A stretch of DNA of 64,000 nt from Naegleria gruberi (taxonomy: Eukaryota): the NCBI GenBank assembly GCA_000004985.1, contig GG738885.1. One strand, written 5' to 3'. Made by a program: the position numbers and the translations under genes. The notes under the pieces were generated by a model. The model was not told the origin of the DNA. It did no database searches and was given only the letters and a program-made list of their open reading frames with translations. This document shows positions 7,913 through 30,104 of this stretch, piece by piece (the first letter of the stretch is position 1; each line of letters starts with the position of its first letter).

Positions 7913-9793
7913 ATGATTAAGAATAGCATCTTTATTGCACTCTTTGTGTGTATATATTTAACATGTACAGTCTATTCACAAGGAGCTCCTTGTGTGTTCA
8001 ATACACCATTGCCAATTAATCCAGATTATTATTGGACAAGTCTTGCCTCCTTCCGAGCATGCTTGCCAAATATTCCTGCTGACAAGGATATGATTGCAAA
8101 CACCCTTGATATTGCTGTTGCTACTTCTAATGGTTATTCTTATGAATATATGGTTCAAAATAGCACATACTCTGGATCTGCATATTCTATTTCTGTAAAT
8201 TTGAAGAATAGAATTCAACAAATCAGAAACAAGAATTATGATTTCGACTATCAATTCCACAAAGAATTGATGGGTCTCTTCTTCAGTCTCTATGATGCTC
8301 ACACAATTTACATGCCTCCAAATCCATACAAGAATTCTTACTTGGTATTCCCATTCGATTTGACTAGCTCAATTACTAATGTTGGACAAGTTATTAGTGT
8401 AAAGGCTGACAATCGTCTCTATAGTGCCATTACTGGTTCTAATTCCGGTGCTGCTGGTAAAACTATTAGAACTATCAATGGAGTCAAGCCAAAGGACTTT
8501 TTAGATAGCATTGCTAATACTATTTTCATGTCAAAGGAAGCTGCTTCCAGATTCAATGAAGTTATCAAGATGCAAGAAATGTCTCTTGGTGCTTTGATTA
8601 TGCCAGAATTTGATTCATTGAACTATGTTTTCAGTGATGGTTCCTCTCTCAATCTCCCATTGGTTGTTTTGCTCTCTCAACAAATTAATGGTCCAAAAGA
8701 TTTCAAGAATTTAATGGCTGCTCAACCTTCCAAGTCAAGAATTGAAGTCAGAGTTAACAATAATCAAAAACGTGCACCAACTATGGCTGTTGATCCAAGA
8801 ATGGTCATTCCAGAATTGTCAATTCCAAAGATTGTTTACAAGAAAACTGGTTTTGAAAGCAAGCTTAGAGGAATGGCTGCTGGTAATCTCAAACTCCTTT
8901 ACTCTGCTTCTGATAAGTCTATCGCATACTTGTACCACACAACTCGTAAGATTTCAGTTTTCAAGATTGAATCATTTGCTCCAAATTATCCATACAGTCA
9001 ATATCCATGGGATGAATTCAAGAGTATTGTTGAAAGAGGAGTTGCTCATGCTCAATCTGTTGGTGTCAAGTCACTCGTTCTTGATTTACAAGGAAATGGT
9101 GGTGGATATGTTTGCTTATCGATTGCTTTGGCCAGACTTTTGATTGCCGAATATTCTGATCTGTCAAAACTCTATCAACCTTTTGAATTCAAGAAAAATC
9201 CACTTGTTGATTCTGCTCGTCCATTCTTCATTCAACCAAACTCAATGCTTAATGCTACAAATCTTCAACTATTGCCAAATGCTGATTTCTATGAGAGAGG
9301 TGTAACAAAGAAACTTGGTGGAGTTATTGCTAGTTACTCTCAACAATTCTATCTTGATTGTGCCAGTGAAGGTAACTTCTTCTTCAAGCCAGCCACTCAT
9401 TACTTTAACAAGTTTATTATCTTGACTGATGGTTTGTGCGGATCTAGTTGTTCTCAATTTGCTTCCAAATTGATTTATAATAAGAAGGCATTGGCTGCTA
9501 ATGTTGGTGGTTATGATTCTACTTTTGAAACAACTGCATTCAATGGTGGTGCTGTTCTTCACTATGATGACCTTGTCAAAAGAGGAGCTCCAATTCCAAG
9601 ATTAACCAAATCCAATGCTGTATTTACTTTCAATGAATTCCACATGTACTTGAATGCACAACAACCAATTCCAAGAGAATTCCAAATATTGAGAGGTGAT
9701 ATCAAGATTAACTCTTGGGACTTTGATGATTTGGAAGGATTGGTTGATACTGTTGCTCCTCAATTCGACAAGATGACTCCACTCAATCAATAA
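7913..9793 (+). CDS. Secreted peptidase S41 family (C-terminal processing / tail-specific protease-like) protein, 626 aa
   Basis: ATG at 7913 with a signal peptide. S41 signature SLVLDLQGNGGGYV (compare LxxDLRxNxGG). Catalytic-serine region ILTDGLCGSSCSQFASKL. Single exon. Confidence 0.6.
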   Translation: MIKNSIFIALFVCIYLTCTVYSQGAPCVFNTPLPINPDYYWTSLASFRACLPNIPADKDMIANTLDIAVATSNGYSYEYMVQNSTYSGSAYSISVNLKNRIQQIRNKNYDFDYQFHKELMGLFFSLYDAHTIYMPPNPYKNSYLVFPFDLTSSITNVGQVISVKADNRLYSAITGSNSGAAGKTIRTINGVKPKDFLDSIANTIFMSKEAASRFNEVIKMQEMSLGALIMPEFDSLNYVFSDGSSLNLPLVVLLSQQINGPKDFKNLMAAQPSKSRIEVRVNNNQKRAPTMAVDPRMVIPELSIPKIVYKKTGFESKLRGMAAGNLKLLYSASDKSIAYLYHTTRKISVFKIESFAPNYPYSQYPWDEFKSIVERGVAHAQSVGVKSLVLDLQGNGGGYVCLSIALARLLIAEYSDLSKLYQPFEFKKNPLVDSARPFFIQPNSMLNATNLQLLPNADFYERGVTKKLGGVIASYSQQFYLDCASEGNFFFKPATHYFNKFIILTDGLCGSSCSQFASKLIYNKKALAANVGGYDSTFETTAFNGGAVLHYDDLVKRGAPIPRLTKSNAVFTFNEFHMYLNAQQPIPREFQILRGDIKINSWDFDDLEGLVDTVAPQFDKMTPLNQ

Positions 9794-13049: not shown

Positions 13050-13751
13050 ATGACAATTCTGTTGCTGCAACTTGCTGTTACATTGATGACATTGGCTTTT
13101 GTGAAGGGAATTAGTATTCTCAAGCTTGTTTCCTTCTTGATCTGTTGGAATGTGACTGGTCTCAATATGCTCAAGTTCTCAAACACTGAGTGGGTCTTCT
13201 GTGTGCTTGTATGTGCTTGCTTCACTGTGTTAAATTACAACTCTTTAAGTATTGGCATATTCAAGTTTGCCAAAGAAGATATTTTACTGCAACCCTATTG
13301 GGAATTTATCATGTGGCCATTCTACACTTTACACACTCTTCGAGTGATAAAAGCCATTCTCCCATCAAAGGATGAAGAAGCTGATAAGCCTTCCATATTT
13401 TCAGAAACCAATCGTTCAGACTTGCTTTTCAACCTTGTTGCTGCTTTGCTCATGTCTTGTCTGTTTGGTGTAATCAGAGATTCATCTACTCTTTTCATTA
13501 CCTCATCGTTGTTGCTCTCACTTATCTTGATCAAGTTCCACTCTGTACATGATGTGGCACATGTTGTTTACATGCAATTATTAGGTTACCTCATCGAAAT
13601 CACTGGTGTATTGAGTGGAGAGTGGCATTATCCATCGAACCCAATTGGAAGAATTCCTCTCTGGTTTTTGACAATGTGGGGAAGTGTTGGATTCTTCTCT
13701 TATAAATTGGTTTATCCAATTATTGCAGAATTAACAAAACCAAAGAAGTGA
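13050..13751 (+). CDS. Hypothetical polytopic membrane protein (about 6 TM), 233 aa
   Basis: ATG at 13050. Multiple hydrophobic helices and no recognisable family. Confidence 0.4.
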   Translation: MTILLLQLAVTLMTLAFVKGISILKLVSFLICWNVTGLNMLKFSNTEWVFCVLVCACFTVLNYNSLSIGIFKFAKEDILLQPYWEFIMWPFYTLHTLRVIKAILPSKDEEADKPSIFSETNRSDLLFNLVAALLMSCLFGVIRDSSTLFITSSLLLSLILIKFHSVHDVAHVVYMQLLGYLIEITGVLSGEWHYPSNPIGRIPLWFLTMWGSVGFFSYKLVYPIIAELTKPKK

Positions 13752-14432
13752 TTAAAATCTTAGCTTCCTTTATCCTTTGAACAACTTGTCCACTTTGTTG
13801 AAGACACTTTGATTTGGGTAAGGTTAAATAAGTGAATTTCTGGTCTTGTGGAAGAAAATAGAAAACAGAATAGTGATCAATTACCTTATACTTACTTGAA
13901 AAGTAAATCAGAAAAGGAAATTCTCAAGATGGAAAATGGGTTGGAAAAAAGAGTTATGGAAAGGGAAGAGAAGAAACTTGAAAGAATCAAAGATGTTAAA
14001 AACCAATTGCAAAATCAATAAATTCAACAATAATAGACATTCATTGCTCATGCCTTTCAAATGTAGAATGCTACCTTTCTAATAGCAAGGTCCTTGATGA
14101 CAATTTCCACCTATTTGCTCTTTGCAAAATGTGAGAGGTTCCATTTAATAATGTTTATTTGGTTGCTAGTGGTGATATGGAAGTTGTGACTTTCTCAGTT
14201 GGGAACCAACATCTTTTAAGGAGAAGCAAAGTACCTTACCTATTTAAGGTACTTTGCTTTTATTTCCATTCCCTAACAATCCAATGTTTCCTTATTTTTT
14301 AGAGCACCATCTCAAAACATTCACATATGGAAGGGTAAACAGATGCTGATAGAAATAAATATTTATTATATTACAATTTAAACCTCAATCTCTTGGTAAC
14401 AACAATTTGGTCCAGTATCATGTGACAGGCAT

Positions 14433-16193
14433 CTAGTCTGATTTTTTGATAGGTAGTTGCAGATATGAGGCGTGTGATTTGCCTGTGTGAATAATGTGCT
14501 TTCCTTTGTTTTCTGGAATATAAGCAGGTGTTCCTGGCATAATTGCTCCCAAATCGTTTTTAGAGCTAACCACCAATCGCAACTGTTCGCCAGGATAGAA
14601 GACCATACCAATTGGGAAAAGATCAATTTCGATTTCTGCAATCTCTCCCGCTTGAAGTTTCTCTACACGATCAAAGCTGTGGGCTGGAACAATATTGGTT
14701 GATAGTTTTTCGTCCAAATGACGTGCCGAAACACGCAGACGTCCATTTGATCCCTTGTATCTTAATACAGACCCACCGTGCTCAGTGAGATCTTGCATCA
14801 TAGCACCTTGATTAGGCACGATAAATTGTTGCAGATGATTGCCATGAACGTCCAGTTTTTGAACGAGAATAAACAAATCCATATCGTCTGCTCCCTCAGC
14901 TTCAACCCAAAGATGCACTTTAGGATAGCCGACCATAACAGTTTCTGTGTCGAAACGTACAATGAAAGAAGCAAGTCCCGGATCAGATTCAGTGTCATAG
15001 ATAACCTTTGCTTCTTGTGGAGGAATCTCAGTGGTAAGCTTACGGAATCTGCCATCAAGGTAATACTTTTGATTTGTAACATCATTCGGTGGAAATTCGC
15101 TTGCTGGTTGATTAATAAGGTCGCCACCTTCAAAGTCGTGTATTGCATAACGAACACGAGGTGTTTGTTCCCAACCATTGTTCTCTCCTTTGAGATAGTG
15201 ATTGAAAAAACGGCGTAAGTCTTCCATATTCTCATCTGTGTAATAATCGGGCCACTCCTGGGTATTATGGATACGAAGCCATTTTTCTGTAGATGCCATT
15301 CCTCGCCAAGCTCTGAATGTACCAGCTGTATGTAGAGTGTTGGAATAACTTGCAACAACGTAGGCGGGTACAGTAATTTTGTCTAAGCGTGCAGTCTTAT
15401 CTTCCCAAATAGCATTATTAGCCAAAGGATAACTAATTGCCTCTTCATAAACATCTTCACGCATCGTGTTTTTAGCACTGACGTGATTGACTTGTAGACG
15501 TTTTGTAAAGTTAAGATCTGGCATCCCACCACGCATAGATAGATCACGATAAGCATCGCTTAAACCTTCCCATGGGTTGATTGCAGCCAGATGAGGTGGT
15601 TGCTCGGCAGCAGTAAACCACTGTGAGATGGCTAGATAAGATGTTCCACTCATCGCTACTTTGCTGTTGCACCATTCCTGAATGGCTAGCCATTCGATTA
15701 AATCGGCACAGTCTCTTCCTTCCTGAGTTCCAATCATATTAATGTCGCCTTCTGAATGTGCAATTCCTCGTGCATCAGGATTGCAGACGGCATAGCCCTG
15801 AGCACACCAATGGGCAGGATCTGGTCCCTCGAACTTGGCTAATCCAGAGAGCATACCGTTATTAAGACCCAACATATTGAAAAGGTTTGTAGTTCTTGGG
15901 GCCGATCCTCCACTTTTGCCATAGGGACTCCATGCAATGATAACTGGGACTTTTTCTGTGACAACTGGTCGAAAAACATCGACATAAATTGTTTTCCCGT
16001 CACGCAAAGTTACTGCAACATCCTTTTCTAAAACTATATCTACTGGTAGAGTACGAAACATTGGGGCAAGCTGATAGCCTTTTGGCAATACCCGTGTGCC
16101 TGGTTCAAATTTACTCAATAGCCCATGTTCTTTTCCGTCATCAATGTAGTTGTAAGCAGGTTCGAAAATTTGAATTTCTTTCAGAGTTGTCAT
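14433..16193 (-). CDS. CocE/NonD-family alpha/beta hydrolase (peptidase S15 / Xaa-Pro dipeptidyl-peptidase-like). Intronless, GC-rich, bacterial-like. Candidate horizontally acquired gene.
   Basis: ATG at 16191-16193 and stop at 14433-14435; 586 aa. Nucleophile motif GTSYLA (GxSYxG of the CocE family). Clearly higher GC (~45%) than the flanks, with frequent CTG/CCG/GCC/CGT codons. AT-rich eukaryotic-type sequence lies immediately on both sides. Confidence 0.8.
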   Translation of the reverse strand: MTTLKEIQIFEPAYNYIDDGKEHGLLSKFEPGTRVLPKGYQLAPMFRTLPVDIVLEKDVAVTLRDGKTIYVDVFRPVVTEKVPVIIAWSPYGKSGGSAPRTTNLFNMLGLNNGMLSGLAKFEGPDPAHWCAQGYAVCNPDARGIAHSEGDINMIGTQEGRDCADLIEWLAIQEWCNSKVAMSGTSYLAISQWFTAAEQPPHLAAINPWEGLSDAYRDLSMRGGMPDLNFTKRLQVNHVSAKNTMREDVYEEAISYPLANNAIWEDKTARLDKITVPAYVVASYSNTLHTAGTFRAWRGMASTEKWLRIHNTQEWPDYYTDENMEDLRRFFNHYLKGENNGWEQTPRVRYAIHDFEGGDLINQPASEFPPNDVTNQKYYLDGRFRKLTTEIPPQEAKVIYDTESDPGLASFIVRFDTETVMVGYPKVHLWVEAEGADDMDLFILVQKLDVHGNHLQQFIVPNQGAMMQDLTEHGGSVLRYKGSNGRLRVSARHLDEKLSTNIVPAHSFDRVEKLQAGEIAEIEIDLFPIGMVFYPGEQLRLVVSSKNDLGAIMPGTPAYIPENKGKHIIHTGKSHASYLQLPIKKSD

Positions 16194-16912
16194 ATTGTCT
16201 CAATTTAATTTTTTTGCTTAAAGTTTCAAACTCTCAAATACAATCAAATCTTTTAAAGGTACTGGCAAACGAAAGTTCACGTCGCTTAACAAAATAGCCG
16301 CCATATGGCGGAGGTGTTGTTTAAACATTCTCAAGTGCGTTAGTGGGTCGCATGTTTAGAGAGACAAGAGATTCACATCAGTACACTTAGTAATTGAATG
16401 ATTGAAGTGAAATCTCTTTTCTAAACATGAAGTGTTTCTTTTAAAGTCAGATAACAGAACTAATTTTTGGATTATCTTCCTGCCAAATAATGCTCCATCA
16501 AACACTGACTGAGTCCAACAATGTTTGATATTTGGAATTCTGTTCATGCAAACATTTAAGAAAAACATTTAAGAAAGCTGGATCTGTGTTCTTGTTTCGA
16601 ACACTTGCGGTATTATTGAAATGTGTTCGAAATCTTGTCTTTGGTTTTAGAAGTCTTGTTTTACCTTCATTCACCTGAATTTCTGATTTGTTGATTCATT
16701 CTTGCCAATGTTCTCCTCTTATTTAATCGAATCGAAGCATGGAGGCAATAAGAGTATTCAATAGTAATAGAATAAATACGGCAGGCTTTTAATTTATTTT
16801 TAGCAGCAATAGTTAAGAACAAATTTTTTCGTTGAGGATTGGCTAACAATTATGGCGCCCTTGTCTACCTAAAAAAGCTGTCCAAAAATAACTTTAAAAA
16901 AATATCATCGCC

Positions 16913-17554
16913 ATGATTAGAGGAGACAATTTGGTGCCTACCTCTTGGAGTGATGAAGAACGGTTTGTTGATGATCTGTTGAACACTTCTTCTTCATCAT
17001 CAATTTGTACACAAGCAGCAACGACATCAACAGTTGCTAATTCATCTTCTTCTAATAGCTTTTCATCATCCGAAATTATAGTCATCAGTGACGATGAAGA
17101 TTTACAAGAAGTGGATCGTTTTCCAACCGATTATCATGTGCAGACTCGATCTTCTAAGAAAAAGTCAACTCCCAAAGGTATAAAAAAGAACAAGAGGGAG
17201 ACTAGAAAGTCATCTAAAATTCAAAATGCTGAAAATATGAAGCATCCAGAAGATATAATTCCTCTGGATGTATTCAGACAATTTGTTAATTCTTCCAAGG
17301 ATGATTTACTTCACCAAGTACTTGGTGAACAGTTGGAAAGTCTCGAATCATCATTTAATAATAGTGAGAAGAAGCTTAAAAAGAAGGCCAGGAAGAAGTT
17401 CAACCCTCCAACCACAGTGGAATTTGATGAGGAGGCAATTCGAGTATTGAGAGATGGAGTTTCCTATTTACTAATTGAAAAATTGAAAAAAACAAAAGAA
17501 ATTGCAAATGCCAAAAATTTATCCCAAGCTCTTTCCCTAGCTATGGATTTGTAG
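16913..17554 (+). CDS. Hypothetical Ser-rich/basic protein, 213 aa
   Basis: ATG at 16913. S-rich N-terminus, K/R-rich middle (possible NLS KKKSTPKGIKKNKRETRK), no domain recognised. Confidence 0.3.
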   Translation: MIRGDNLVPTSWSDEERFVDDLLNTSSSSSICTQAATTSTVANSSSSNSFSSSEIIVISDDEDLQEVDRFPTDYHVQTRSSKKKSTPKGIKKNKRETRKSSKIQNAENMKHPEDIIPLDVFRQFVNSSKDDLLHQVLGEQLESLESSFNNSEKKLKKKARKKFNPPTTVEFDEEAIRVLRDGVSYLLIEKLKKTKEIANAKNLSQALSLAMDL

Positions 17555-18048
17555 CGCCAACAATTGATCATTCAACTCTCAAACTTCTCAATTTAATGTA
17601 TTTGTTCATTGATGAAGAATAAAAATTTCAAATATTTTTAAAAAAACAAAAATCCCACAACAATCAGCAAATCACACCTACAAATTTTTGGAGAAGAGAA
17701 AAACCAAAACTCTGAAGACTAAGATAGGACGCCATTCTCGAAGGTCAGACTCTAACGACAAGCCTGTCCTATTAGAGTTCGATTCAAAAGAAGGGAGCAA
17801 TAGCATAGAGTGCTTCTTAAGTGGCAAGTGCAACACGGAATGTTGCATTAATGTCAATCCAGATTCACACACTTATTTTTCAATCAAAATGTTGATGAAT
17901 CATTTTGATTGTAGAGCTATTTTAAACCGACTACAATGATGATAAACACGTGTGCTAATTGGAAGGGAAGATAACTCACCCGTAACACTTTGTGATGACC
18001 ATTTTAACTTGAAAACCTTCAATCTTTATTTTTGAAAATTCAAAAAAA

Positions 18049-18489
18049 ATGTCTCAATCAATGAAAGGATTCAACCTGACCAAACTCTCGGAAGGAAATG
18101 CTCATTTTGGAGAGCAAGTTGGCAATCAGCTCTATGAAGATTATCTCCCATCGTTGATGGCTACCCAACTTAATTGTGCTAAATATTTTGATCTTAAAGT
18201 TGATGATGAAAAGACAAAGAATGATCCAGAAAGAACACACATTTCCGAAAGTGAATATATGAAATCAGTTACAGGATGTATTGCTGAAAGTTTATGTCCA
18301 AAGACATTCAGTGAACAAAATAAGAGTAACAAGGATTGTGTATCAAAGCTGATTCAAATGAATGCTGATTGGAAAGCAAACGTTCCTCAAGATAAAGAAG
18401 TACAATTCAAAAAGGATCTCAAAGATTGCATGACAGAGGTAAAGAAATGTGCAGCAGAATTTATTTTGCACGGAAGCTCTGGAAACTAA
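18049..18489 (+). CDS. Hypothetical protein, 146 aa
   Basis: ATG at 18049. Several Cys residues and no family match. Confidence 0.25.
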   Translation: MSQSMKGFNLTKLSEGNAHFGEQVGNQLYEDYLPSLMATQLNCAKYFDLKVDDEKTKNDPERTHISESEYMKSVTGCIAESLCPKTFSEQNKSNKDCVSKLIQMNADWKANVPQDKEVQFKKDLKDCMTEVKKCAAEFILHGSSGN

Positions 18490-18546
18490 GCATAATGTAC
18501 ATTATATTTGTAAATATAAAAATCATCCACGTGTATGATGTGGCTA

Positions 18547-19384
18547 TCATTTAACTTGATAACTAAGGAAACCTCTTCTTTCCAAAAGACAAAACCTCAA
18601 TGGCTTCTCACTCCAATCATCAGCATAATCAATATTAATTCTGGGACAGGCCGCTAATGTAAAGTTTCCAAATTTGAACGATTTTACATCAGTCCTAGTG
18701 TAGGGAATTAGTTCAGGCTCAAAATCTTCTAAAAATACTGTTTCCGAACTCTTTAGATCAACTCCATCAAATTCCTCCCTAGTTAAATTCAAAGCATGAG
18801 AAATTCTAGCTGGTCCAGAACAAACATTATGAATGATGATATTATTTGGATTGATTTGAGATTTGGGCGATAACAATTGATTCATTGTAATTCTATTTTG
18901 TTTCATTTCCTCAAATCCTTCAATTGGTTCAATTGCCCTAATCAATACTGCAGCTCCACTCTCATTACTAGTTATATTGAAACAATCATTGTGTCCCTTA
19001 AATGATTTATAGATATAGGAATGACCATATGGCAAGTACATGTTCCTATTCTTTTCTGTTTGTTTACCTTCATAGGTATGAGAAGCCTTGTCCAATACTC
19101 CTAGATAGGCCTCTTTGGTTCATGAACAATAATTCAAAACAAATAATTATAATTTGTTTTCATTCCAATATAAACTCACCAACCTCTACAATCATGCCAG
19201 ACAATCGTTTATCTCCATCAATTCTAACCAACAACTTTCCGATGAGTTGTTTTGCCAATTCCTCACATCCTCTATTGTAAAATTCAGCATCCACTCGTTT
19301 TGATCCATCACAACTACTATCCTGCATGATTTGTTCGATTAAATTATTACTACTATTATCAAATGATTCGTTTGTACTGGCCAT
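18547..19384 (-). CDS. DNA-3-methyladenine glycosylase (MPG/AAG family), two exons
   Basis: Exon 1 is approximately 19180..19384; its ATG is one codon inside the track's GTG at 19387. Exon 2 is approximately 18547..19112. The 67-nt intron, approximately 19113..19179, runs GTGAGT..AAAG. The spliced product ...LAKQLIGKLLVRIDGDKRLSGMIVEVEAYLG...ASHTYEGKQTEKNRNMYLPYGHSYIY... matches human MPG (GRIVETEAYLG...AHSRGGRQTPRNRGMF...). Confidence 0.75.
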
Positions 19385-19490
19385 CACACTGAGGTAGTAG
19401 TACCTTCTTGTTGTCTTTCTATTTTTTAATATATTTAATAATAGATTGATGAATCATCTCTTACGTATGAATTATTGGAATTTACAATGA

Positions 19491-20975
19491 ATGTTCTTCT
19501 CCTTGACAAAGAAAATTCCAATCTTGAAAAAAATGTCTTCACACCACACAATTCATCATCTTCACTCGGATGTAATTCATGGGATTTTGAGCTTTTTGGA
19601 TGGAAGATCTATCATTCTCACTCGCTCAAGTTGTAAAATATTTAACGAATGCTATATGAATCATAGAGAAAGAATATGGAAAGAGTTGTGGAGAAGGGAA
19701 TTTCCATCACTTTCCGAAAAGATTAATTATTTTATTGAAAATAGAGGAGACGGTGAATTTACAAATATAATAGAGAAGAAAGTTGCTAATTGGTCGGATT
19801 ACTTTGATCTTTTTTTTAATGCCAAATTACATCATGAGAGAAAGGGACAATATAAATTGAATATTCTCAAGTCAGACAAATTGGAAGATAAACAAGAGAG
19901 TAATCCGAATGACATATTGACACAGACTCTCCCTGTTTCATTCTGTTGTTTCATGAAAAAGTATAGAAATTTAGAAGGATATCTACCAAATGAAAATGTG
20001 CTTTCAAGACTTACCAACGAAGAAAGAGGTGTATTGAATATCATGACCGATAAGAATAGGTATTTATTCTTTTCGAGATTTAATGATCCAGTATTTTCTC
20101 TAGTGGATGTTAAAAATAATAGAATTGCTAAGAAATTCGTAGGTCACAAAGGAACTGTTCTGGACATTAAATGTCTCTTTACTGACCCATTCAATTTAAA
20201 GTCGACCAATGTAGGAGCAGGCACTTTCTACCTCAATACTACAAGTACATCCTTCAATAATAGAGTTGTTAGTGCTTCAAGTGATAAAACTATCAAAATT
20301 TGGAACTTTACAACTGGAAGTTGCATTGAAAGCTTGACAGAACACAAAGGAAGTGTTGTCTCCATTGAAATGATCAATGAGAATGTTCTCTGTAGCGCCT
20401 CTCATGATTTATCCATTAAGCTGTGGGACTTGAATCATGGAGCATCTCTTTCAACATTGGACAATGTACATGAAAAGTTGATTTACAAAATTCAATATAA
20501 TTCATGGAATAATTTCCTTGCATCATGTGGAAAGGATGGTACCACTAATCTATTTGACATGAGAACTATTAGTAATGCTTCTAAACCTTTCAAAACCTTG
20601 GATCATATCAAGGATGGAGACACTGAAAAATTGTCAGTCTATTCAATTGCTATGAATTCACACACTCTGTGTTGCGGAGGAAAGGATGGCTTATTTACCA
20701 TGTATGATTTGAGAAATCTCGAAAAGCCACTCTTAAAGAAGAATTTCACATCTTCCATTGACAGAATTTATTCGGATGAGTTTAAGGCAGTACTTTTTGA
20801 AGGATTCACTTGTAAAGTTCTCGATTTAAATACAATGCAAGAAGAAACCATCACCGAGTTGGAAAATAGACAAGCTACCTATTGTGTTGCCCTAGGAAAT
20901 GAACCATTCATTGATTATAACACAATGGTCACTCAGATTGATAATCAAAATCTATGCCTCGTCGACATGTTGTAA
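19491..20975 (+). CDS. F-box / WD40-repeat protein, 494 aa
   Basis: F-box-like N-terminus (HLHSDVIHGILSFLDGRSIILTRSSCKIFNECY). WD repeats (SASSDKTIKIWNF; SASHDLSIKLWDL; SCGKDGTTNLFDM). Confidence 0.65.
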   Translation: MFFSLTKKIPILKKMSSHHTIHHLHSDVIHGILSFLDGRSIILTRSSCKIFNECYMNHRERIWKELWRREFPSLSEKINYFIENRGDGEFTNIIEKKVANWSDYFDLFFNAKLHHERKGQYKLNILKSDKLEDKQESNPNDILTQTLPVSFCCFMKKYRNLEGYLPNENVLSRLTNEERGVLNIMTDKNRYLFFSRFNDPVFSLVDVKNNRIAKKFVGHKGTVLDIKCLFTDPFNLKSTNVGAGTFYLNTTSTSFNNRVVSASSDKTIKIWNFTTGSCIESLTEHKGSVVSIEMINENVLCSASHDLSIKLWDLNHGASLSTLDNVHEKLIYKIQYNSWNNFLASCGKDGTTNLFDMRTISNASKPFKTLDHIKDGDTEKLSVYSIAMNSHTLCCGGKDGLFTMYDLRNLEKPLLKKNFTSSIDRIYSDEFKAVLFEGFTCKVLDLNTMQEETITELENRQATYCVALGNEPFIDYNTMVTQIDNQNLCLVDML

Positions 20976-21011
20976 TTTTATAAAGCAAGCAAATATTAGA
21001 ACCTTAAAAAA

Positions 21012-22859
21012 ATGATTAAAAAGCTCGACCAAGCAACAGAGTTTCATTTGAGAAGTGGTGTTCAGTTGCCGGATATTCAGACAATTTTAGGGAAATTGAT
21101 CGATAATGGTGAGTTTGGTTATTTAATATATTCCTTCTGAATTATGTTTGTAAAGCAATTGAGGCTAAAAGTACTTTTATTCGTATTAATATCAAATCGA
21201 AGCCTTCTTTTTCCATTGAGGTTAAAGATGATGGAGTAGGAATTGATTTCTCTGGATTGAAAACAATCGGAGAGTGTAGAAATGGTAAGTAATTAAGAGT
21301 ATTACAATATATAAAACCAATGAAATATAGTTTCTTCTAAAACTGATTTGAAAGGAGAGTCTCTTCATTCAATAATTACAGCCTGCTCTACTGTCAAGAT
21401 TACCTCCAAAGGGAATAATTATCCTCTCTGTTTCTCTTCAATATTTGTAAATGGTCAAAGGAAAAGCCTTGAACAAGCTCCCATCACAACTTTCCAAAGA
21501 GGAGGAACCTCTGTAATGGTTGAAGGAATTTTCAGTAATTATCCAGTGAGGAAGAAACAATTAGAAGAGCATCCTGATCAATACTTGAGATCAATTGTAG
21601 ACTTTATAGAGGTAGAAAGCTTCAAATTGGTTGATATTCAAATTGCATTGGTTTGTGATGGAATGTCAATCTTTGATTTGTCCAACTCGGAAAAGGAACA
21701 AGCCTTACATCAAAGAATAAGGAAACGATATGAAGAGTTGACGAGAAGGAGAAACTTATTTCCAATAGAAGACATCAAGTTTGGAGAATTGCAAGTCAGT
21801 GGCATTGTTGATAAGAATGACATAACTTCAAAGATCAAGATTGTAATTGTAAACAATAGGGTTTATCCAATAGAAACATTAATTAAGAAAGGAGAAGAGT
21901 TTGGAAGTTTTGTACTCTGTGCTTCTATATTGAAAGCTCCACCACATAACTCTGAAATGATTAACTCTGAGCTTCGCAATGCTCTGTTCTATAGTAAGCT
22001 ACATAATGAATCAAGCACTATTCAAATATACAATGAAGAATCAGAACAGAGAAAAGAGTTTGCACCACTATCTTCTTCCCTTTATGATAAGATGTACAAT
22101 AGAAAACCAAGTGAAAACAAAATTAAGGGTGACCGTTTAAATATTAACCAACTAATTAACAAATCGAAAGAGATTAATGGCATCAAAACCATTCCAAAAC
22201 CTCAACCCAAGTTTATGAGCTCTCCAAAAAAGAAGAAGCTGTTGAATATTTCTCTTGACAAGAACCAAATGAAACAATTGAAATTTATCAATCAATGGGA
22301 GAAGAAGTTTATTCTCACATCCTTAAAGACAGAGAACAGTCTCCTACTTATTGCTATTGATCAACATGCAGCAGATGAGAGAGTTCGCATGGAGATGATT
22401 CAACAAAATATATTAGATTATGCGCAGCAGTCTCCTGGCCCATGGGTACAACCACTCTCGAAGCAAACACTAAACTCCACCAAGGTTGAGGGATCGAAAA
22501 CCATATCCTTATTGAAACAGAACAAAGACAAATTATCCAAATGGTATTGGAATTTTATTATCATTCATGAAGAGTCAACAAACGCATTTTTAAAACTCAA
22601 TACTATACCTTGTTTATTCGTCGAGAAAGACTCTATTGAGCTTGGTTTTGAATCTATGATGTCATTTTTATCTGAACTGGAATTTGATTCAACCTGTTGG
22701 TATCCAAAACGAGTTTTAGAACTCATTCAATCCAAAGCATGCCGTGGAGCCATTATGTTTGGAGATGTGCTATCCACTGAGAAATGTAATCAACTGTTAC
22801 AACAATTATCAAATTGTCAACTGCCTTTCCAGTGTGCTCATGGAAGACCTAGTAAGTAG
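21012..22859 (+). CDS. MutL homolog, MLH3-like mismatch-repair protein, three exons
   Basis: Exons are approximately 21012..21108, 21156..21284 and 21331..22859. The splice restores the GHKL ATPase motif LIDN|AIEAKST. C-terminal motifs DQHAADERVRME and FQCAHGRPS are present. Confidence 0.75.
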
Positions 22860-23006
22860 TTCCAACTTTGCAATTTTTTAAACAACCATTTCAAAATAGC
22901 AACTGGAATCCTGACTTCGATCAATTAGGTAGTAATATTGAGATTAACAATAATGAAGAAATAAAATGCCATTTTGAACAGTTCAATTGACTAATAAATT
23001 ATTTAT

Positions 23007-24470
23007 TTAATATTCTTCAGTCTTAATATCATTCAAACCAAGATCTTCATTTTGTTCGAAAGTTCTCTCATATTGTTCAACAGTAAGGAATGGATCAACA
23101 TCTGGAGCAAACAAGTTTTGAATATAACTGTTTGACACTGGATCATCAATAATCAAAGTCCAAGGCATACGACCACCAGTTTGCATTTCATCAATACCAG
23201 TCAAGAATTTTTGGAATGATTCCTTTTCCTCAGCTGAGTCACCAACTCTAAATTGGTTGACTTCGGTCAGCTTGTCCTTAATATTCATTAATAAACCTTC
23301 AACAGTTGTAAATTTACCACCAAGAGAACCAGTAGCAACCTGGAGGTCGAGTTCTGGAATTTCCAATGAAGCAGTTTCACTCTTCAAAACATCTCTACTC
23401 AAATCTTCTGGGTTAGTGACACGAAGAGTTAATTTAGTGGCGTATGGAGATATTTGACCACCAGCTCTAACTTCAGTAGTCTTGTAACCACACTTGTCAC
23501 AAGTGAATGACATTAAAATAATATCTTTAAAGAATGGAACAACCAACGGCATCATCTTCAAGTTACCTGAAACACCACAACCGTAACATGGTTCATTAAA
23601 TGTGAAAACTTCCTCTGGTGCAGACATCTTTTCTTGCAATAATTCAATTTCTCTCTCGTTAGAAATAATTGATGTTGGAATATTAGCAGCAAGTCTACTC
23701 TTTGGTTTTTCTTGACCTCCTTCAGTGTAATTTTGAGCACCTAGTGAGAGACCAAGTCTTTCAGTTTGTTCATCAGATCTTTGATAATATCTAGTGAAAA
23801 CTTGAGGATCATTTGGTACTGTTAATTTTTCAACATTTGAATTTCCAGAATAATCATCAATAACAATAGTGAATGGGAATCCTTCTCCACTAATTAATTT
23901 TTGTGCCTTTTCAATAAAGTTATCAATAGCAGAAGCAAGAGAAGGGTCCAAAACTCTTCTAGCTGCTTGTCCATCCAATAAATTATCAATTGCTCTATTA
24001 ATAACACCCTCAACAGTTGTAAGTGTACCCTTTTGAGTATTTTCTGGAATTTCAAAATCAATTTCTGGAATACTCAAAGTAGCAAAGTCAGACTTGACAA
24101 TTTGTCTATCCAAATCTTCCTTCTTTTCAACCTTTAAAGTGTAACAAACACCAAAATCACCATAAGAACCACCAAATTGAATTTCTTGATTTCTCATTCC
24201 ACAATGTGGGCAGCTGAAACTAGTAATAATAACTTCTCTAAAGTGAGGAATTTTAGTGAACAACATTCTAGTAACACCATTCTTCTCACAATTTACACAA
24301 AAGCTTTCCAATTCCAAAGGAGCAGAATCATTCAAGCCAATAGTATGGAAAATAGGTTCCGATGAAGTAGAAAATTGTTGTTGCTTTGGTTCTTCAGTGG
24401 TGGCGGTTGTACTATTAGTTTCTTCAGTACTAGTATTTTCGTGGTTATCAACGTCGTTGAGGGTAATCAT
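23007..24470 (-). CDS. zpr1: ZPR1-type zinc-finger protein, 487 aa, single exon
   Basis: Two ZPR1 zinc-finger modules (CVNCEKNG...CPHCGMRN and CYGCGVSG...CDKCGYKT), each followed by a ZPR1 beta-domain. Full-length ORF. Confidence 0.85.
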   Translation of the reverse strand: MITLNDVDNHENTSTEETNSTTATTEEPKQQQFSTSSEPIFHTIGLNDSAPLELESFCVNCEKNGVTRMLFTKIPHFREVIITSFSCPHCGMRNQEIQFGGSYGDFGVCYTLKVEKKEDLDRQIVKSDFATLSIPEIDFEIPENTQKGTLTTVEGVINRAIDNLLDGQAARRVLDPSLASAIDNFIEKAQKLISGEGFPFTIVIDDYSGNSNVEKLTVPNDPQVFTRYYQRSDEQTERLGLSLGAQNYTEGGQEKPKSRLAANIPTSIISNEREIELLQEKMSAPEEVFTFNEPCYGCGVSGNLKMMPLVVPFFKDIILMSFTCDKCGYKTTEVRAGGQISPYATKLTLRVTNPEDLSRDVLKSETASLEIPELDLQVATGSLGGKFTTVEGLLMNIKDKLTEVNQFRVGDSAEEKESFQKFLTGIDEMQTGGRMPWTLIIDDPVSNSYIQNLFAPDVDPFLTVEQYERTFEQNEDLGLNDIKTEEY

Positions 24471-24896
24471 TTTTTTTCAAACAATTTTTGAATTGATGAT
24501 TTTTATGCTTGAAGATTAAGATAAATTATGCTGAAGGAATGCTCAAGGAAAATTCCGAAATTGCACTTTAATATTATTTACTATCATGATGATTAATTCT
24601 TTAATTTATTGTACAAATATTAATACTTGAAGCTAATTAAAATTCAACATTTCGGAATCAATATTATTTTATAAACCATATGATGATTTGCCTCTCAACC
24701 TATGAAATACATAATAGGATATTATAATAAGGATCCAAACAATCAGTAATCAGTGTCTCTAAATCAATATTAATCTAGGAGTATTAACATGATGAACTAT
24801 CAAAATGCTATAATTCTTCCGAAATAGCATGATGATGCTCCAGAAACACCTAAGAACTCAAAACTTCTCCGTCAGCCAAATCTCTCAAAAGAAAAA

Positions 24897-26084
24897 ATGT
24901 TCACCATTGCTGCTTCACTGGTGTTGGCCTATGTGGGTGTCTGTTTCATTTGGGATCAAATTCCGTATGTTTCTTCAAATTTCTAATTGTTGACTGTTGA
25001 TTTTTGTGTGATTGTTGCTAATTTGTTGATGATGAACTGTTTAATGAACATTCCTTTGATATGAAATTTGTTACCGATCACAATGATGATGACTATGATT
25101 TGATAATGATGATTCTACTATTATATTAACTATTACATAGTCCTAGAATGAGTGCTAGAAGAAAGATTTCAATGAGTGGATGGGGAGCCCCTTCAGAGCC
25201 AGCCACTTATGGATGTGTCACTATTGATCTAGAGAAAATTGAAGATTTATTGACCAAGGTTTCCGAAAAAATTGGTCAAAAGATTACAATTACTCATTTC
25301 ATGAGTAGAGCTGCTGGTTTGGCAATTGAGGCATGTCCTGAAATTAACTGTAGAATGGTTTTGGGTAAATTGCTTCCAAACAAGACTATTGATGTCAGTT
25401 TGCTTGTTGCTTGTGAAGATCCAAAAACTAAGAAGAATGATTTATCCAATGTCACAATTAGATCAATTAACAAAAAGACTTTGAAAGACATTTCCGATGA
25501 AGTTGTTAAAGGAGCTGAAAAATTGAGAAGTGGAAAAAACGAAAATCACAAAAAGACAAATCAACCAATGTCTTTCTTGCCAACCCTTATTGCTGGTCCA
25601 ATTATTAGCTTTATGGCTTGGTTGGCTTGTGCTTTGCAAATGAATATTCCTGCATTGGGACTTCAAGCCCATCCATTTGGTACTTGTATCATTACATCGT
25701 AAGTATTGATTGTGTTGACATGGTTTGGATGAACTAATATTTCATAGAGTTGCTGGTTTTGGAATTGAGGAAGGATTTGTTCCATTAGCTCCATTCACAA
25801 GATGTCCATTCTTCATTTGTATTGGGTAAGTTTTTTCTCCACCTCAAATGAATTTTAATTTCATTTCGGATAGTTTGGCCAAGAGTCAACCAGCTGTCAA
25901 TGAACAAACTGGACAAATTGAAGCTAGAAGACAAGTTAAAGTTACTGCCACCACTGACCATCGTTTCGTAGATGGTAAGGAAGTTGGAAAATTAGTTAAG
26001 AAATTTGTGGACGTCTGTACTAATGTTGAAAAGTACTTTACTGTTGATGAGGAATCTAAAAACTTTGTTGAAAAGAAGCACTAA
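24897..26084 (+). CDS. Membrane-anchored protein with a 2-oxoacid dehydrogenase E2 acyltransferase catalytic (CAT-like) domain only, four exons
   Basis: Exons are approximately 24897..24964 (MFTIAASLVLAYVGVCFIWDQI, TM), 25141..25698, 25748..25825 and 25874..26084. Introns are 176, 49 and 48 nt (GTATGT/GTAAGT..AG). The catalytic-domain motifs ITITHFMSRAAGLAIEACPEIN and TTDHRFVDGKEVGKLVKKF (DHRxxDG) are present. There are no lipoyl or E3-binding domains. Confidence 0.55.
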
Positions 26085-26150
26085 TTTAGTTATAATTTAT
26101 TATAAACATAAAAATATTAATCTAGTTAGATGATTTAATCTGTTGTAATC

Positions 26151-27374
26151 CTAGTTGAATTTGAAAAATTGTTGAAAGTGATCCTTAAGTAACTCTTCAC
26201 ACTTTTCTCTGCTTAATTCCTCCTCTATGGTCGCACCTATTTCGGATAGAAATGATTTTACAATCAATAAATTGTCATTCATGCTCTCTATTGATTGGAA
26301 ATCAACAATTGGTCTTGCATCCAATTCCAATTCGTCATCAATTAATTGGAAGGTAAATGTTGTAGACCACACAAATTTGCACACCTCCTCAATACCAGAT
26401 GATACTCTAGGTGTGCTGGTACTGCTGATTTCTTGACCAATTTTACTGCCACTACTGCATAACTTTTCTGTTCTGTAGTGAACTACCTCTATTGAGGAAT
26501 TATTAAAGTACAATTCTACAACCCACATTCTTCCATCAAATAATCGAACCTTTCCTCCAAACTCTGATTTGAATTTAGATTTGACATCCATCACTGATTG
26601 TGAGATTGATTCTTGTTGCATGCAACTCAATATCTTTAAAATGTTTTTAAAAGTATTCAATCTGTGGGGTTTTAATTCCAATTCCTTCCAAACATTCTCC
26701 ATTGTTGAAATCATATCATTCTTAATAGTTTCAACAGATAGTTCCTCACCCTCATCCTGACTATTAGTATTGAATAAATCTGCTCGGCAACACTCTACTA
26801 AACCTAGATTTTGAAATAATTGACCAAAAAGTCTCAGAATTGCCTCTTCAATTTCATAATTTGATGGAGAAGATGATTCAACAAGTTCAATTCCATCAAC
26901 TTTCATTTTTGGAATTAATCTCACAATATCTGATGCTATTAATTTAAAAGTATCACCAGTCATGGATACATCACTCGCATTATCAATCAGATCAAATCTT
27001 GATGATATTATTGCATTCTCAATTTTGCTATTTTTCGAAATGGTAACATTATCCTCTGGTTGATCCTCTACTTTCTGATATTGAAGTGAATTTGATAGTG
27101 TTCTAACTGATTTTCGTATAGTTTCCGATTGATTAGCAATCATTTTGGCATTCGAATCAGAGACATCATCCACCACTACAAGACTTTGTTTTAAATCAAT
27201 TGTAATAATTGATGAATCGTTAGAATTAGAATGAGAGTGAGTTCCTGTTGATGATGATGAAGATTTATCAACGTGTGATTGTTGTTGTTGTTCCTCACCT
27301 TGATCTAATTCATCCTCCTCCTCTTGATCTTCCTTTCGGTTAGAAGAACAAACAACCATAGCTTTGAGAAACAT
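26151..27374 (-). CDS. Hypothetical acidic protein, 407 aa, single exon
   Basis: ATG at 27374. Acidic/poly-Q N-terminus and no confident domain assignment. Confidence 0.35.
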   Translation of the reverse strand: MFLKAMVVCSSNRKEDQEEEDELDQGEEQQQQSHVDKSSSSSTGTHSHSNSNDSSIITIDLKQSLVVVDDVSDSNAKMIANQSETIRKSVRTLSNSLQYQKVEDQPEDNVTISKNSKIENAIISSRFDLIDNASDVSMTGDTFKLIASDIVRLIPKMKVDGIELVESSSPSNYEIEEAILRLFGQLFQNLGLVECCRADLFNTNSQDEGEELSVETIKNDMISTMENVWKELELKPHRLNTFKNILKILSCMQQESISQSVMDVKSKFKSEFGGKVRLFDGRMWVVELYFNNSSIEVVHYRTEKLCSSGSKIGQEISSTSTPRVSSGIEEVCKFVWSTTFTFQLIDDELELDARPIVDFQSIESMNDNLLIVKSFLSEIGATIEEELSREKCEELLKDHFQQFFKFN

Positions 27375-28024
27375 TTTTTTTATCGGAAAGAGAAGTTTGA
27401 TGACTTTTGGATTAATATGAATGTGTTATTGTCATCTGTTTTGCTGACTTAGTATTCTTGGTTATGATCATGCCAATTGTTTAGAATCATTATTGGTTGT
27501 GTTTTGTTACTGGTGTAATATCTTTACCCTCTTGCTTTTGGTACCAATCAATGATGAACGGTATTATGATTTATAAAGAGTGGAATTATGTGGTTTAACA
27601 CTTTCTTGTGTAGAAGATTATTGGTAGCAATACCATTGAGCAATTATTATATCATCCATTATTGCAAAGTCTTCTTTGTCTAATAATTTTTTTAATTATT
27701 GTTAAATGGTGATGATGAAATTTCTTGTTATTGTTTCTAAAGCAAATGATGAAGTTTTTGTTGTTGCTAACTCAGCTTCAAGGAATGACATCATATACAA
27801 ATCGGTATGAGATCGGCGAGTAGAATGTTATTATTCTTTTGTTGTGTTGTGTGTTGAATGCAATTTTGAAAGCAGGCAAGAAGGTCAAAAAATATTCATT
27901 GTAAAATTCACTAATGTGGTTGCCAACCAGAAATTTGCATAAAATTTGTTGAAAAAAAAATCATTAATTCGTAAGTATCACTCACGTTAATGGAGATTGC
28001 TAAACCACCTCATCTTACTAGAAA

Positions 28025-28453
28025 ATGGGTAAAGTCAGAACCAAGACTGTCAAGAAGGCATCAAAGATCATCGTCGAAAAGTATTACAATTCTCTTACTA
28101 CCGACTTCGATACCAACAAGAAGGTCTGTCAAGAAATCGCCACCATTCCAACTAAGAGAATGAGAAACAAGATTGCCGGTTTCACTACTCACTTGATGGC
28201 CAGAATCAAGAAGGGTACCGTCAGAGGTATCTCCTTGAAGTTGCAAGAAGAAGAAAGAGAAAGAAGAATGGACTACGTTCCAGAAGTTTCTTATGTCGAT
28301 GAAATTATCAACAGAGGTATTGAAGTTTCTGATGAAGTCTCTGACATGTTGAAGACTATTGGTTTCGGTGATTTGAAGAGCGTCACTAAGGTCTCTCACT
28401 CAACAGGCCACCACCAACACCACAATAAGAGAAGAGGTAACAAGTCTTATTAA
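28025..28453 (+). CDS. rps17: 40S ribosomal protein S17 (eS17)
   Basis: [21 protein letters not shown]...[34 protein letters not shown] is near-identical to eukaryotic eS17. Intronless, 142 aa. Confidence 0.95.
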
Positions 28454-28486
28454 ATAAATCCAATATAAAACTATTTAAAATTACCT

Positions 28487-30104
28487 TTAATTCTTTTTTA
28501 AAATTATTATTTGTCTTCCTATTCTAGAATCATGAGTTAAGTGCATATGGAAGAATCGTTGATGTAGAGTAAAGTTGTGTTGTTGGATGAGAAATTCGGC
28601 AACAGATTGAACACTGTGATGATCATACATTACTACATAATGTGCTTCTTTGTGTGTCTTGGATACTTTCTGTACAAACTCTAGAGGATTATTGTAGAAT
28701 CTATCAGCTTGTGAATCATCTCCATCAAAAGGAGAGCAGTCCAAGTGGAATAGCTTAATATGTCTCGTGGATTGTCTTCCTTCAAATAAGAATGCATGAC
28801 CAGGCAAATGGTGACAAGGCATTAATAAATGAACTACCATATCCTTTTCTTGCCCAGTAACAGGCAATTGTTGTTTGAAGAATTGTTGACTCTCACTTCT
28901 CAAATGATTGACCACCTTAATTGGAGCACTTTGATGAATTCTTCCAAGATAAAATACAGCACCCAGTTGAACAATGGTCATAATTACAAGTAAGAGTCTG
29001 TATCCTCTATCAGTGATATGAACCTTATTGTGAATAAAATCTCCAATTGAAATAAAACAGAGTGGTAAAATTGGATAGATAAATCTAAACTCCTTATGAG
29101 CTTGTAATGAATAGACCAATACTGGTAAGAGAATGACACAATTAAGTTTCCAATATTTTCTACTATATTCCCTATTCACAAAATTAATCCACACATAGAG
29201 AGGGAAATGTGTTAATAACATGACAGGAAATCCCTGAGTAAAATACCAATGCCATGGTTGAGTTCCATATACTAATAAAATCAAGAACAGTAATTATTTA
29301 AAAGAAATGATGAGAAAACATACAATGGGCAAGATTTTCAACAATGTTAAATTTCAAAAAGTTCAAAATTACAATGGTGAATTGTCCATACATATTTGAG
29401 TCAATCTGGATTGAAATTGCAAGCCAAATTATACTATTCAATTAAATATTCCGTTTCCAATAATTATTTTAAGCTCTTAATTATATAATTTCACTTACAC
29501 ATATCCAATGAATGTTAATAAATATTTGAAAATATTCTTCTCCTTAAATAATTGAAACAAAAACAATGGAATATAAATAATGGTACTTGTTGGTCTCACA
29601 ACACATCCAAATCCTGCAAAAAACATCCAGTAATGCCTAAATTTCTTTGAATGATCATGATTATGATGATGGGAGTGACATTTATCATCGTGACATTCAT
29701 CTTGTTGAATTAGATCAACAGGGAATAAATAAATAGCAATTAACACAATATTCATTTCCATAGTATTTGAAAAAGTCCTCACTCCACAATATAAATTAAA
29801 CCAATTAGTCAATGAAATCAATAACTACAAATTCCACAATTGCAATTAAATTAACACATACAGTCAAATAGGCAGTCATTTTCGATTTTAAATACTTGGC
29901 AACAATTAAAAAGAGAAAATAATCTGACAATGCTGTGCACACTGACTGAACAGCAATTGGCATCCAATACGATAAGAAACCCATCAATGATTCATCATTT
30001 CCATATAATTTCTCCACAAAATCCATCACATAATATCCACTAGATAGAATCATTGGATGAAGATATCCTCGGAGAGAGTGTTTAGCATCCCATTCCCATG
30101 GTAT
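28487..30104 (-). CDS. GPI mannosyltransferase 3 (PIG-B / Gpi10 family, GT22); at least 4 exons, 5' exon not found
   Basis: Exons are approximately 29862..30104 (IPWEWDAKHSLRGYLHP, matching the conserved TWEW..LRSY..P), 29499..29824, 29324..29433 and 28487..29271. Introns are 37, 65 and 52 nt. Motifs QPWHWYFTQGFPV and LLMPCHHLPGHAF match PIG-B (HPWHWYFSQGFPV; MPCHSTPYYSH). The first in-frame ATG is at 30053, but the conserved coding sequence runs up to the TAA at 30105-30107. Confidence 0.7.

Follow-up and report, generated by a model that had tools for sequence, protein, structure and literature searches.

A Bacteroidota-like CocE/NonD hydrolase gene between host genes of Naegleria gruberi: a probable single-gene transfer from bacteria

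Bacterivorous protists are a main test case for the gain of metabolic genes from prey ('you are what you eat'). In Acrasis kona, 1,253 phylogenetically supported horizontal gene transfers (HGTs) were reported, enriched for metabolic functions and in some cases followed by the gain of introns and signal peptides; N. gruberi proteins with non-excavate top hits were tallied as well (PMC11589745). Here, we describe NAEGRDRAFT_58783 (XP_002674303.1; UniProt D2VNV6), a gene of the free-living amoeboflagellate Naegleria gruberi NEG-M for a CocE/NonD-family serine hydrolase, hereafter the esterase, with close relatives in bacteria. The gene lies in a stretch of 64,000 nucleotides without Ns (the window; assembly GCA_000004985.1, contig GG738885.1), which is part of a 362,555-bp scaffold. 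Its coding sequence (CDS; 14433-16193, minus strand) is a single exon of 586 codons, and the translation exactly matches the annotated N. gruberi protein. It lies between a convergent gene for a 233-aa protein (13050-13751) and a divergent gene for a 213-aa protein (16913-17554, plus strand). An earlier reading of the window from its letters alone (the sequence-only reading) had placed a 586-aa CocE/NonD open reading frame (ORF) on the minus strand at 14380-16350; the ORF and its family were confirmed, but that range takes in flanking DNA. The gene model is already in public annotation. Full-text searches with four identifiers, and with the accessions of the samples, found no mention of the gene, and no earlier paper singling it out, in the searchable literature, with the supplementary lists of the 2010 genome paper lying outside that search.

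The protein has the architecture of the CocE/NonD family, an S15 domain followed by a PepX_C beta-sandwich, each above its curated cut-off. Peptidase_S15 (PF02129) covers residues 65-310 (E 1.4e-38, 133.5 bits; cut-off 23) and PepX_C (PF08530) covers residues 339-579 (E 3.4e-36, 125.6 bits; cut-off 22.5), and the NCBIfam CocE_NonD model TIGR00976 scores 224.3 bits against a cut-off of 66.3. Assignment as a true Xaa-Pro dipeptidyl-peptidase (PepX, or S15 proper) was rejected, as all three NCBIfam PepX models fall far below cut-off (NF003780, 45 vs 642 bits; NF003782, 32 vs 711 bits; NF003781, 26 vs 881 bits), and the UniProt-style name 'Xaa-Pro dipeptidyl-peptidase C-terminal domain-containing protein' is a domain label and not an activity. 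The GTSYLA nucleophile motif noticed in the sequence-only reading is present as G183-T-S185-Y-L-A188 (15630-15647, minus strand), from the translation and from alignment to the CocE and 3ib3 motifs. In alignments, Ser185 falls on the nucleophile motif of cocaine esterase chains (GVSYLG) and on GVSYLA of PDB 3ib3, in keeping with a G-x-S-Y-x-G elbow in which the last Gly is replaced by Ala, as it is in 3ib3. Residues S182-L187 are invariant across a 16-sequence family alignment, and Ser185 is the predicted catalytic serine. His288 and His309, both invariant and both kept in 3ib3, are candidates for the catalytic histidine, and no acidic residue occurs in 277-292.

The closest solved structure is PDB 3ib3 / 3iii, a 'CocE/NonD family hydrolase' presumably from Staphylococcus, which matches residues 52-582 (E 2e-90; 9e-114 with the family profile). 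It shares the GxSYLA motif and both histidines but is a distant, paralog-level relative, and as a structural-genomics entry with no assigned substrate it informs the fold but not the substrate. Cocaine esterase CocE of Rhodococcus (PDB 1ju3 and others) shares the family and the nucleophile elbow (query 130-216 / CocE 63-148, E ~3e-18), whereas its C-terminal jelly-roll aligns weakly and no alignment was obtained for the segment with its catalytic Asp and His. Nothing in this comparison justifies assuming cocaine or benzoate-ester specificity for the Naegleria protein. A literature search found no study of the subfamily and no characterized close relative.

A search of a 5.8-billion-protein database yielded, as its best 120 matches, proteins of 69-99% identity at 95-100% query cover. 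All named proteins among these are bacterial, apart from a 99% match from another Naegleria strain and one Gregarina protein, and the top named matches are Bacteroidota (Bacteroides reticulotermitis, Fibrivirga, Mucilaginibacter and Tannerella; 78-83% identity, 99-100% cover). This answers the question posed by the sequence-only reading, whether the top matches would be bacterial or amoebozoan, in favor of bacteria with Bacteroidota at the top; its amoebozoan host was mistaken, as N. gruberi is a heterolobosean (Discoba). In a scan of 185,579 prokaryotic species genomes, identities were 75-80% for Sphingobacteriales, Bacteroides, Tannerella and Chryseolinea, and 62-73% for Proteobacteria, Chloroflexi, Actinobacteria, Acidobacteria and Lactobacillaceae; members of the family occur in six or more bacterial phyla. 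The closest full-length relative, a metagenomic protein (P0002, 83%), is encoded among SusC/SusD genes and genes with type IX secretion system (T9SS) tails, which are Bacteroidota hallmarks. The esterase resembles P0002 and the proteins of Fibrivirga algicola, Mucilaginibacter gilvus and Bacteroides reticulotermitis in length, start, end, both Pfam domains and all family-invariant residues, and differs from their genes in lying in a eukaryotic chromosome between eukaryotic genes, with third-position GC (GC3) and codons partly shifted to those of the host. As a reference, ZPR1, a vertically inherited gene lying 7 kb from the esterase, encodes a protein that shares 70% identity with its N. lovaniensis and N. 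fowleri counterparts, 67% with that of Willaertia and ~50% with those of other eukaryotes.

In a neighbor-joining (NJ) tree (134 sequences, 575 columns, 100 bootstraps), the two Naegleria sequences pair at 100% bootstrap and are nested among bacteria. They fall in a clade with 96% bootstrap together with all Bacteroidota sequences, a Sedimentisphaerales metagenome-assembled genome (MAG), Lactobacillaceae and Gregarina, to the exclusion of Actinobacteria, Proteobacteria, Chloroflexi, Myxococcota and Acidobacteria. From these sequence relationships, horizontal transfer from bacteria is strongly supported, and the donor was most likely a member of Bacteroidota.

The 99% match sits on a metagenome contig in ENA (ERZ929261, 4,496 bp) and also in the Logan assembly of that run. 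Along window positions 16380-11907, the ENA contig follows the N. gruberi sequence colinearly at ~95-96% identity, across both ends of the esterase gene and two host genes. Because this separately assembled strain, ~4-5% diverged, has identical junctions, contamination and misassembly are excluded as the source of the gene, and the claim of the sequence-only reading that it lies in eukaryotic DNA and not on a contaminating contig is upheld by an independent contig across both junctions. Linkage to the host is therefore repeated in independent data, and synteny of the host flanks with N. fowleri and N. lovaniensis begins 1.5 kb from the gene. Between the strains, mismatches amount to 1.0% in the CDS, with no gaps, and to 0.5-1.7% in neighboring ORFs, compared with 6.7% (39/583) plus 165 gap columns in the 3' intergenic DNA. 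The N. gruberi assembly is on the ContScout list of genomes with some contaminant proteins (PMC10831095); the esterase locus is not among these contaminants.

The gene is maintained by selection in its recipient. The two strains differ in the CDS by 10 synonymous and 7 nonsynonymous substitutions and no indels, giving a ratio of nonsynonymous to synonymous rates (dN/dS) of 0.20 (Fisher p = 0.001). Across 132 other family members, 115 positions are invariant and 231 are conserved at 95% or more; the esterase retains 115 and 229 of these, respectively, and its distance to the outgroup set (0.375, vs 0.35-0.41 for bacterial clade-mates) gives no sign of rate acceleration.

The esterase ORF is the GC maximum of the 64 kb, as the sequence-only reading had noticed, although its figures (~45% against 25-35%) were somewhat exaggerated: GC content is 0.429 against a mean of 0.340 for the whole window, ~4.5 sd above stretches of the same size (sd 0.020). 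By codon position, GC is 0.56 / 0.39 / 0.33 in the ORF and 0.42 / 0.35 / 0.275 in the 31 other long ORFs of the window pooled, with ~76% of the excess in positions 1 and 2 and a GC3 of 0.334, where host ORFs span 0.21-0.41. In 16 bacterial orthologs, whose genomes lie between 37 and 71% GC, first-position GC is always 0.50-0.67 and second-position GC always 0.36-0.44; because these values are high whatever the genome GC, the excess at positions 1 and 2 reflects the amino-acid composition of the protein family and is not a donor signature. Low-GC Bacteroidota orthologs have a GC3 of 0.31-0.38, so a donor of this kind would have needed almost no amelioration. The earlier step from 'unameliorated composition' to a recent arrival therefore does not follow, as composition cannot separate a recent arrival from a low-GC donor.

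Codon usage was scored with a leave-one-out model of host synonymous usage over 32 ORFs, among which the esterase is the least host-like (z = -2.4), about as unlike the host as the Chryseolinea and Sphingobacteriales orthologs. The strongest contrast is at Arg, where CGT is used in 16/28 (53% vs 9% in the host) and where the host has AGA for 70% of Arg codons; other non-host drivers are GGC (25% vs 7%), CTG (13% vs 4%), GCC (27% vs 17%) and CTA. Per codon, a model built on a low-GC Bacteroidota ortholog fits at -1.10, and the host model at -1.14. Of the codons that had been called foreign, CGT, CTG and GCC are indeed raised (as is GGC), but CCG and GCG occur just twice each and GC3 is host-like. 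Part of a bacterial codon preference (CGT, GGC, CTG) is retained in the ORF; its GC3 and some of its codon usage now lie at host values. The ORF has no introns, as had been said, but this does not set it apart from its neighbors: both adjoining genes (13050-13751 and 16913-17554) are intronless too, and they and three more tested ORFs match annotated N. gruberi proteins exactly and without interruption. The raised GC of a transferred gene can thus be almost wholly an amino-acid effect, which makes GC alone a poor amelioration clock, and particular synonymous preferences such as CGT over AGA for Arg tell more.

The esterase is located ~1.4 kb past a synteny breakpoint, on the non-syntenic side. 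Window positions 17729-31133 are colinear with N. lovaniensis PYSW02000005.1 and N. fowleri VFQX01000029.1 through genes for eIF2D, GT22, RPS17e, 2-oxoacid dehydrogenase, ZPR1, a MutL-like protein, WD40, purine DNA glycosylase and a 149-aa protein, and colinearity ends at approximately 17554-17729. Past this point N. lovaniensis carries an unrelated 855-aa gene, and N. gruberi carries the 213-aa orphan gene and then the esterase. The best 120 matches include no protein of N. fowleri, N. lovaniensis or Willaertia, although the database covers their proteomes, and no esterase homolog was found in three 21-kb syntenic loci. Codon identity at shared residues is in slight excess between Naegleria and the closest bacterial orthologs (z = 4.5 and 3.8), and the same measure between different Bacteroidota lineages at equal protein identity gives z = 4.4-4.9; since sharing is no higher than between Bacteroidota lineages, no sampled bacterium is close to the donor. 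Protein identity to sampled bacteria does not exceed 83%, with synonymous sites almost saturated. The gene was acquired before the two N. gruberi-complex strains separated. The pattern of synteny and absence suggests that the gruberi lineage acquired the gene after diverging from the lineage of N. fowleri and N. lovaniensis, with a rearrangement breakpoint at or close to the site of insertion.

We regard it as highly probable that NAEGRDRAFT_58783 is a genuine nuclear gene derived by single-gene horizontal transfer from a bacterium, most likely of the Bacteroidota; one bacterial gene would have entered the N. gruberi lineage, leaving a CDS now set between two host genes. The candidate transfer proposed by the sequence-only reading is thereby sustained by bacterial close relatives, a Bacteroidota-dominated clade and the second-strain junctions. 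That the ORF is bacterial in sequence, intronless and the GC maximum of the window, in an assembly listed with some contaminant proteins, could also be explained by bacterial contamination or a chimeric assembly. This is scarcely credible for a gene in the middle of gap-free Naegleria sequence on a 362-kb scaffold, with both junctions and two host genes reproduced in metagenome and Logan assemblies of a diverged strain, with GC3 and part of the codon usage at host values, and with no bacterial neighbor genes or flanks. Vertical inheritance of an ancient eukaryotic CocE/NonD gene lost elsewhere, or transfer from a eukaryote to bacteria, could draw on the homolog that a second eukaryote, Gregarina niphandrodes, carries on a 156-kb scaffold. 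It is nevertheless very improbable, as the 83% identity to Bacteroidota exceeds that of vertical ZPR1 between Naegleria species (70%), the Naegleria sequences are nested in the 96% bacterial clade with Gregarina in a separate Bacteroidales subclade (68-78% support), and the family spans at least six bacterial phyla, with no member from N. fowleri, N. lovaniensis or Willaertia in the best 120 matches or the syntenic loci.

An ORF that is integrated but functionless, unexpressed and drifting towards a pseudogene would agree with codon usage poorly adapted to the host, with the lack of demonstrable eukaryotic-type gene features, and with searches of the literature and proteomics supplements that turned up no expression evidence. 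We consider this improbable, given 586 codons intact in two strains with no indels against 165 gap columns in the adjacent intergenic DNA, the dN/dS of 0.20 (p = 0.001), the 115 of 115 invariant residues kept on a branch that is not accelerated, and a 5' flank that is unusually conserved between strains (p = 0.0013). A very recent, still unameliorated acquisition that retains donor composition and codons is rather unlikely. It is favored by the least host-like synonymous usage of 32 ORFs, with CGT and GGC far above host levels, by codons that fit the low-GC Bacteroidota ortholog slightly better than the host, by the absence of introns and of an N-terminal extension, and by the lack of the gene in other Naegleria species among the best 120 matches and in the syntenic loci. 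It is countered by a GC3 in the host range with a GC excess that is mostly at positions 1 and 2 and intrinsic to the family, by a nearest bacterium at 83% with codon sharing no greater than between Bacteroidota lineages (z 3.8-4.5 vs 4.4-4.9), and by the presence of the gene in two strains with 6.7% mismatches and many indels in flanking intergenic DNA. No bacterial flank survives, and composition cannot tell a recent transfer from one out of a low-GC donor.

Several points weigh against transfer of a functional gene from Bacteroidota. The tree is NJ only and gives no specific bacterial sister with bootstrap support, and its Bacteroidota-dominated clade also takes in the Sedimentisphaerales (Planctomycetota) MAG and Lactobacillaceae; the family moves among bacterial phyla, and the donor phylum is therefore not certain. 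The selection test rests on 17 substitutions, and proteomics supplements for N. gruberi (PMC9035749) gave no match for the gene identifiers, which is uninformative as to presence of the protein. Absence from other Naegleria is judged from the best 120 matches and from loci that extend ~0.4 kb beyond the breakpoint and show no true empty site. The segment expected to hold the catalytic His and acid gave no alignment to the characterized enzymes CocE, AEH and PepX, and aligns with 3ib3 only.

The esterase and the 213-aa gene are separated by a divergent intergenic region of ~720 bp (16194-16912, listed for the minus strand), which presumably holds the host promoter and 5' untranslated region (UTR) of the esterase and from which the gene is presumably transcribed. 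In the 187 bp upstream of the ATG, 2 positions differ between strains, compared with 39/583 in the 3' intergenic region (Fisher p = 0.0013), a conservation that is consistent with a constrained promoter or 5' UTR. A consensus scan and an inverted-repeat finder located a GC-rich palindrome in this region (16298-16311, minus strand), CCGCCATATGGCGG, followed by the T-run CTATTTTGTT. This perfect 14-nt palindrome, 105-118 nt ahead of the ATG, is terminator-like in form and unchanged in the second strain; eight Bacteroidota intergenic regions hold no counterpart. The 3' intergenic region (13752-14432, minus strand), between the convergent esterase and 233-aa genes, is AT-rich and fast-evolving and contains AATAAA-type strings ~60-70 nt past the esterase stop. 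A perfect 17-bp hairpin with T-runs on both strands (14222-14261) lies ~170 nt downstream of the stop in NEG-M; it was considered as a relic bacterial terminator and rejected as a strain-specific structure, since the second strain has one arm only.

At the eight Bacteroidota loci (L004, L005, L006, L008, L010, L023, L024 and L025), a gene for an AraC-type regulator ends 107-184 bp upstream of the esterase gene, and the spacer carries two GTTTGAAWTTTATAC-like boxes followed by TAnnTTTG, ~110-180 bp upstream. We take TAnnTTTG to be the Bacteroidota -7 promoter consensus, and the boxes together with it are probably the operator of the regulator plus a promoter. The Naegleria gene lacks the regulator gene, the GTTTGAAWTTTATAC boxes and TAnnTTTG. 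The eight AraC regulators had no tblastn match in the Naegleria upstream region (all E > 0.1), and local alignment of 200-nt Naegleria flanks to the bacterial intergenic regions stayed at chance level (p = 0.31 and 0.12), with host controls scoring as high. Carriage of bacterial flanks along with the gene was rejected on these two results, and the recognizably bacterial part appears to be the CDS only. A search for flanking direct or inverted repeats as an insertion signature returned just short two-copy chance matches.

The start and end of the esterase match those of bacterial orthologs, and a cytosolic location is suggested because there is no hydrophobic or added N-terminus. The product would be a soluble, cytosolic serine hydrolase of the alpha/beta-hydrolase fold (CocE/NonD, MEROPS S15-like) in which Ser185 would be the nucleophile, with an ester or amide bond of a short peptide or small molecule as its target. 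Bacterial orthologs occur as single genes and adjoin genes for AraC-type regulators (Bacteroidota) or TetR-type regulators (Proteobacteria, Actinobacteria and Lactobacillaceae), and Amidohydro_2, SnoaL-like and acyl-CoA-dehydrogenase-like genes and a second S15 paralog recur nearby. This context fits an inducible hydrolase of small-molecule esters or amides with a catabolic or detoxifying role. In Naegleria the gene is probably kept because it would widen what a bacterivorous amoeba can hydrolyze from prey or the environment.

Like the transfers documented in Acrasis and other heteroloboseans, the esterase is a bacterial metabolic enzyme gene integrated in the genome of a bacterivorous heterolobosean; unlike some of the Acrasis genes, it has gained neither introns nor a signal peptide. 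Its identity to extant bacterial proteins (83%) is unusually high, in part because the family evolves slowly (~70% identity across phyla). It is a solid but ordinary transfer from bacteria to a protist, of which hundreds to thousands have been reported for heteroloboseans, and it leaves knowledge of Naegleria or of HGT unchanged. The locus does provide a clean and well-controlled example, with an identifiable donor group, junctions confirmed in a second strain, measurable constraint and syntenic flanks that could allow dating.

The Gregarina niphandrodes homolog is a second case of this bacterial family in eukaryotic DNA. Its 596 aa are encoded in a single ORF and share 73% identity with the Naegleria protein. 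The ORF lies on the 156-kb apicomplexan scaffold KK211485.1 (L042, 8001-9791), 6 kb from a V-ATPase G gene, and its GC matches its own flanks (0.54 vs 0.52). Unlike the Naegleria gene, it groups with Bacteroidales and Lactobacillaceae in another subclade, and it is probably an independent acquisition.

Three observations concern partial or damaged relatives. A bacterial contig (L003, Logan SRR23883189) encodes a 185-aa fragment that is 90% identical to the C-terminus of the Naegleria protein; it was rejected as a near-donor, as the C-terminal 163 residues reach 87-89% in many full-length matches, and nucleotide identity to the Naegleria gene is just 78%. On this contig the C-terminal 163 esterase residues (1684-2241; 90% to Naegleria) lie between two unrelated genes, a PM0109-family gene and UxaC, and the fragment appears to be a truncated remnant in a bacterium. 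In JGI metagenomes, no relative or Naegleria copy was found above ~81-86% identity, and the matches at that level were fragments. In a metagenomic ortholog (L024, 4001-5746), codon 164 of the matched frame is a stop, which marks a pseudogene or an assembly error.

The convergent neighbor of the esterase, NAEGRDRAFT_70632 (13050-13751, plus strand), encodes a 233-aa multi-pass membrane protein and has the highest GC3 in the window (0.41). A full HMMER search found 173 homologs at E <= 1e-3, none of them above 42% identity. All whose origin could be seen are bacterial, and every named one is a protein of a Planctomycetota MAG. The three loci inspected lie in bacterial DNA, and two of these belong to records named as Planctomycetota. 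The homologs are frequently fused to, or encoded next to, a FeeM N-acyl-amino-acid synthase, radical SAM proteins or methyltransferases. The family is fast-evolving, its bacterial members being 37-50% identical to one another. On these relationships, the 233-aa gene may be a second, independent bacterial acquisition. Co-transfer with the esterase is not supported, as the two families are never adjacent in the bacterial loci examined: no 233-aa homolog occurs in 36 bacterial loci of the esterase family, and no esterase occurs within 10 kb of the 233-aa homologs in three bacterial loci, two of them named Planctomycetota. It is doubtful that the two genes mark a hot spot of repeated foreign-DNA integration at the breakpoint or arrived jointly from one donor; the one-donor variant is kept in view because a close esterase relative is found in the Sedimentisphaerales (Planctomycetota) MAG and because 32-42% identity, in so fast-evolving a membrane-protein family, permits a similar age. 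A broader foreign island was rejected, as the other genes at 1-17.6 kb belong to ordinary eukaryotic families or are orphans. One gene of this part of the window (7913-9793, plus strand) encodes a 626-aa protein with weak matches to Peptidase_S41, a CPAF-like PDZ domain and bacterial C-terminal processing peptidase.

At the edge of the synteny block, a 149-bp stretch (17729-17871) has 80.5% DNA identity to N. lovaniensis (L040, 21017-21161), far above its surroundings. It has no Rfam match and is not a tRNA, and could be an unannotated small RNA or a regulatory element. Within the block, N. fowleri and N. lovaniensis carry CTP_transf_like and IQ-motif genes between ZPR1 and WD40 (window 21000-23000 vs L039/L040 11600-17400); these genes and one or two more are missing from the N. 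gruberi window, which points to local gain or loss. Further along the window, a U5 spliceosomal small nuclear RNA gene lies at 31671-31781 on the plus strand (Rfam RF00020, 69 bits, full-length model).

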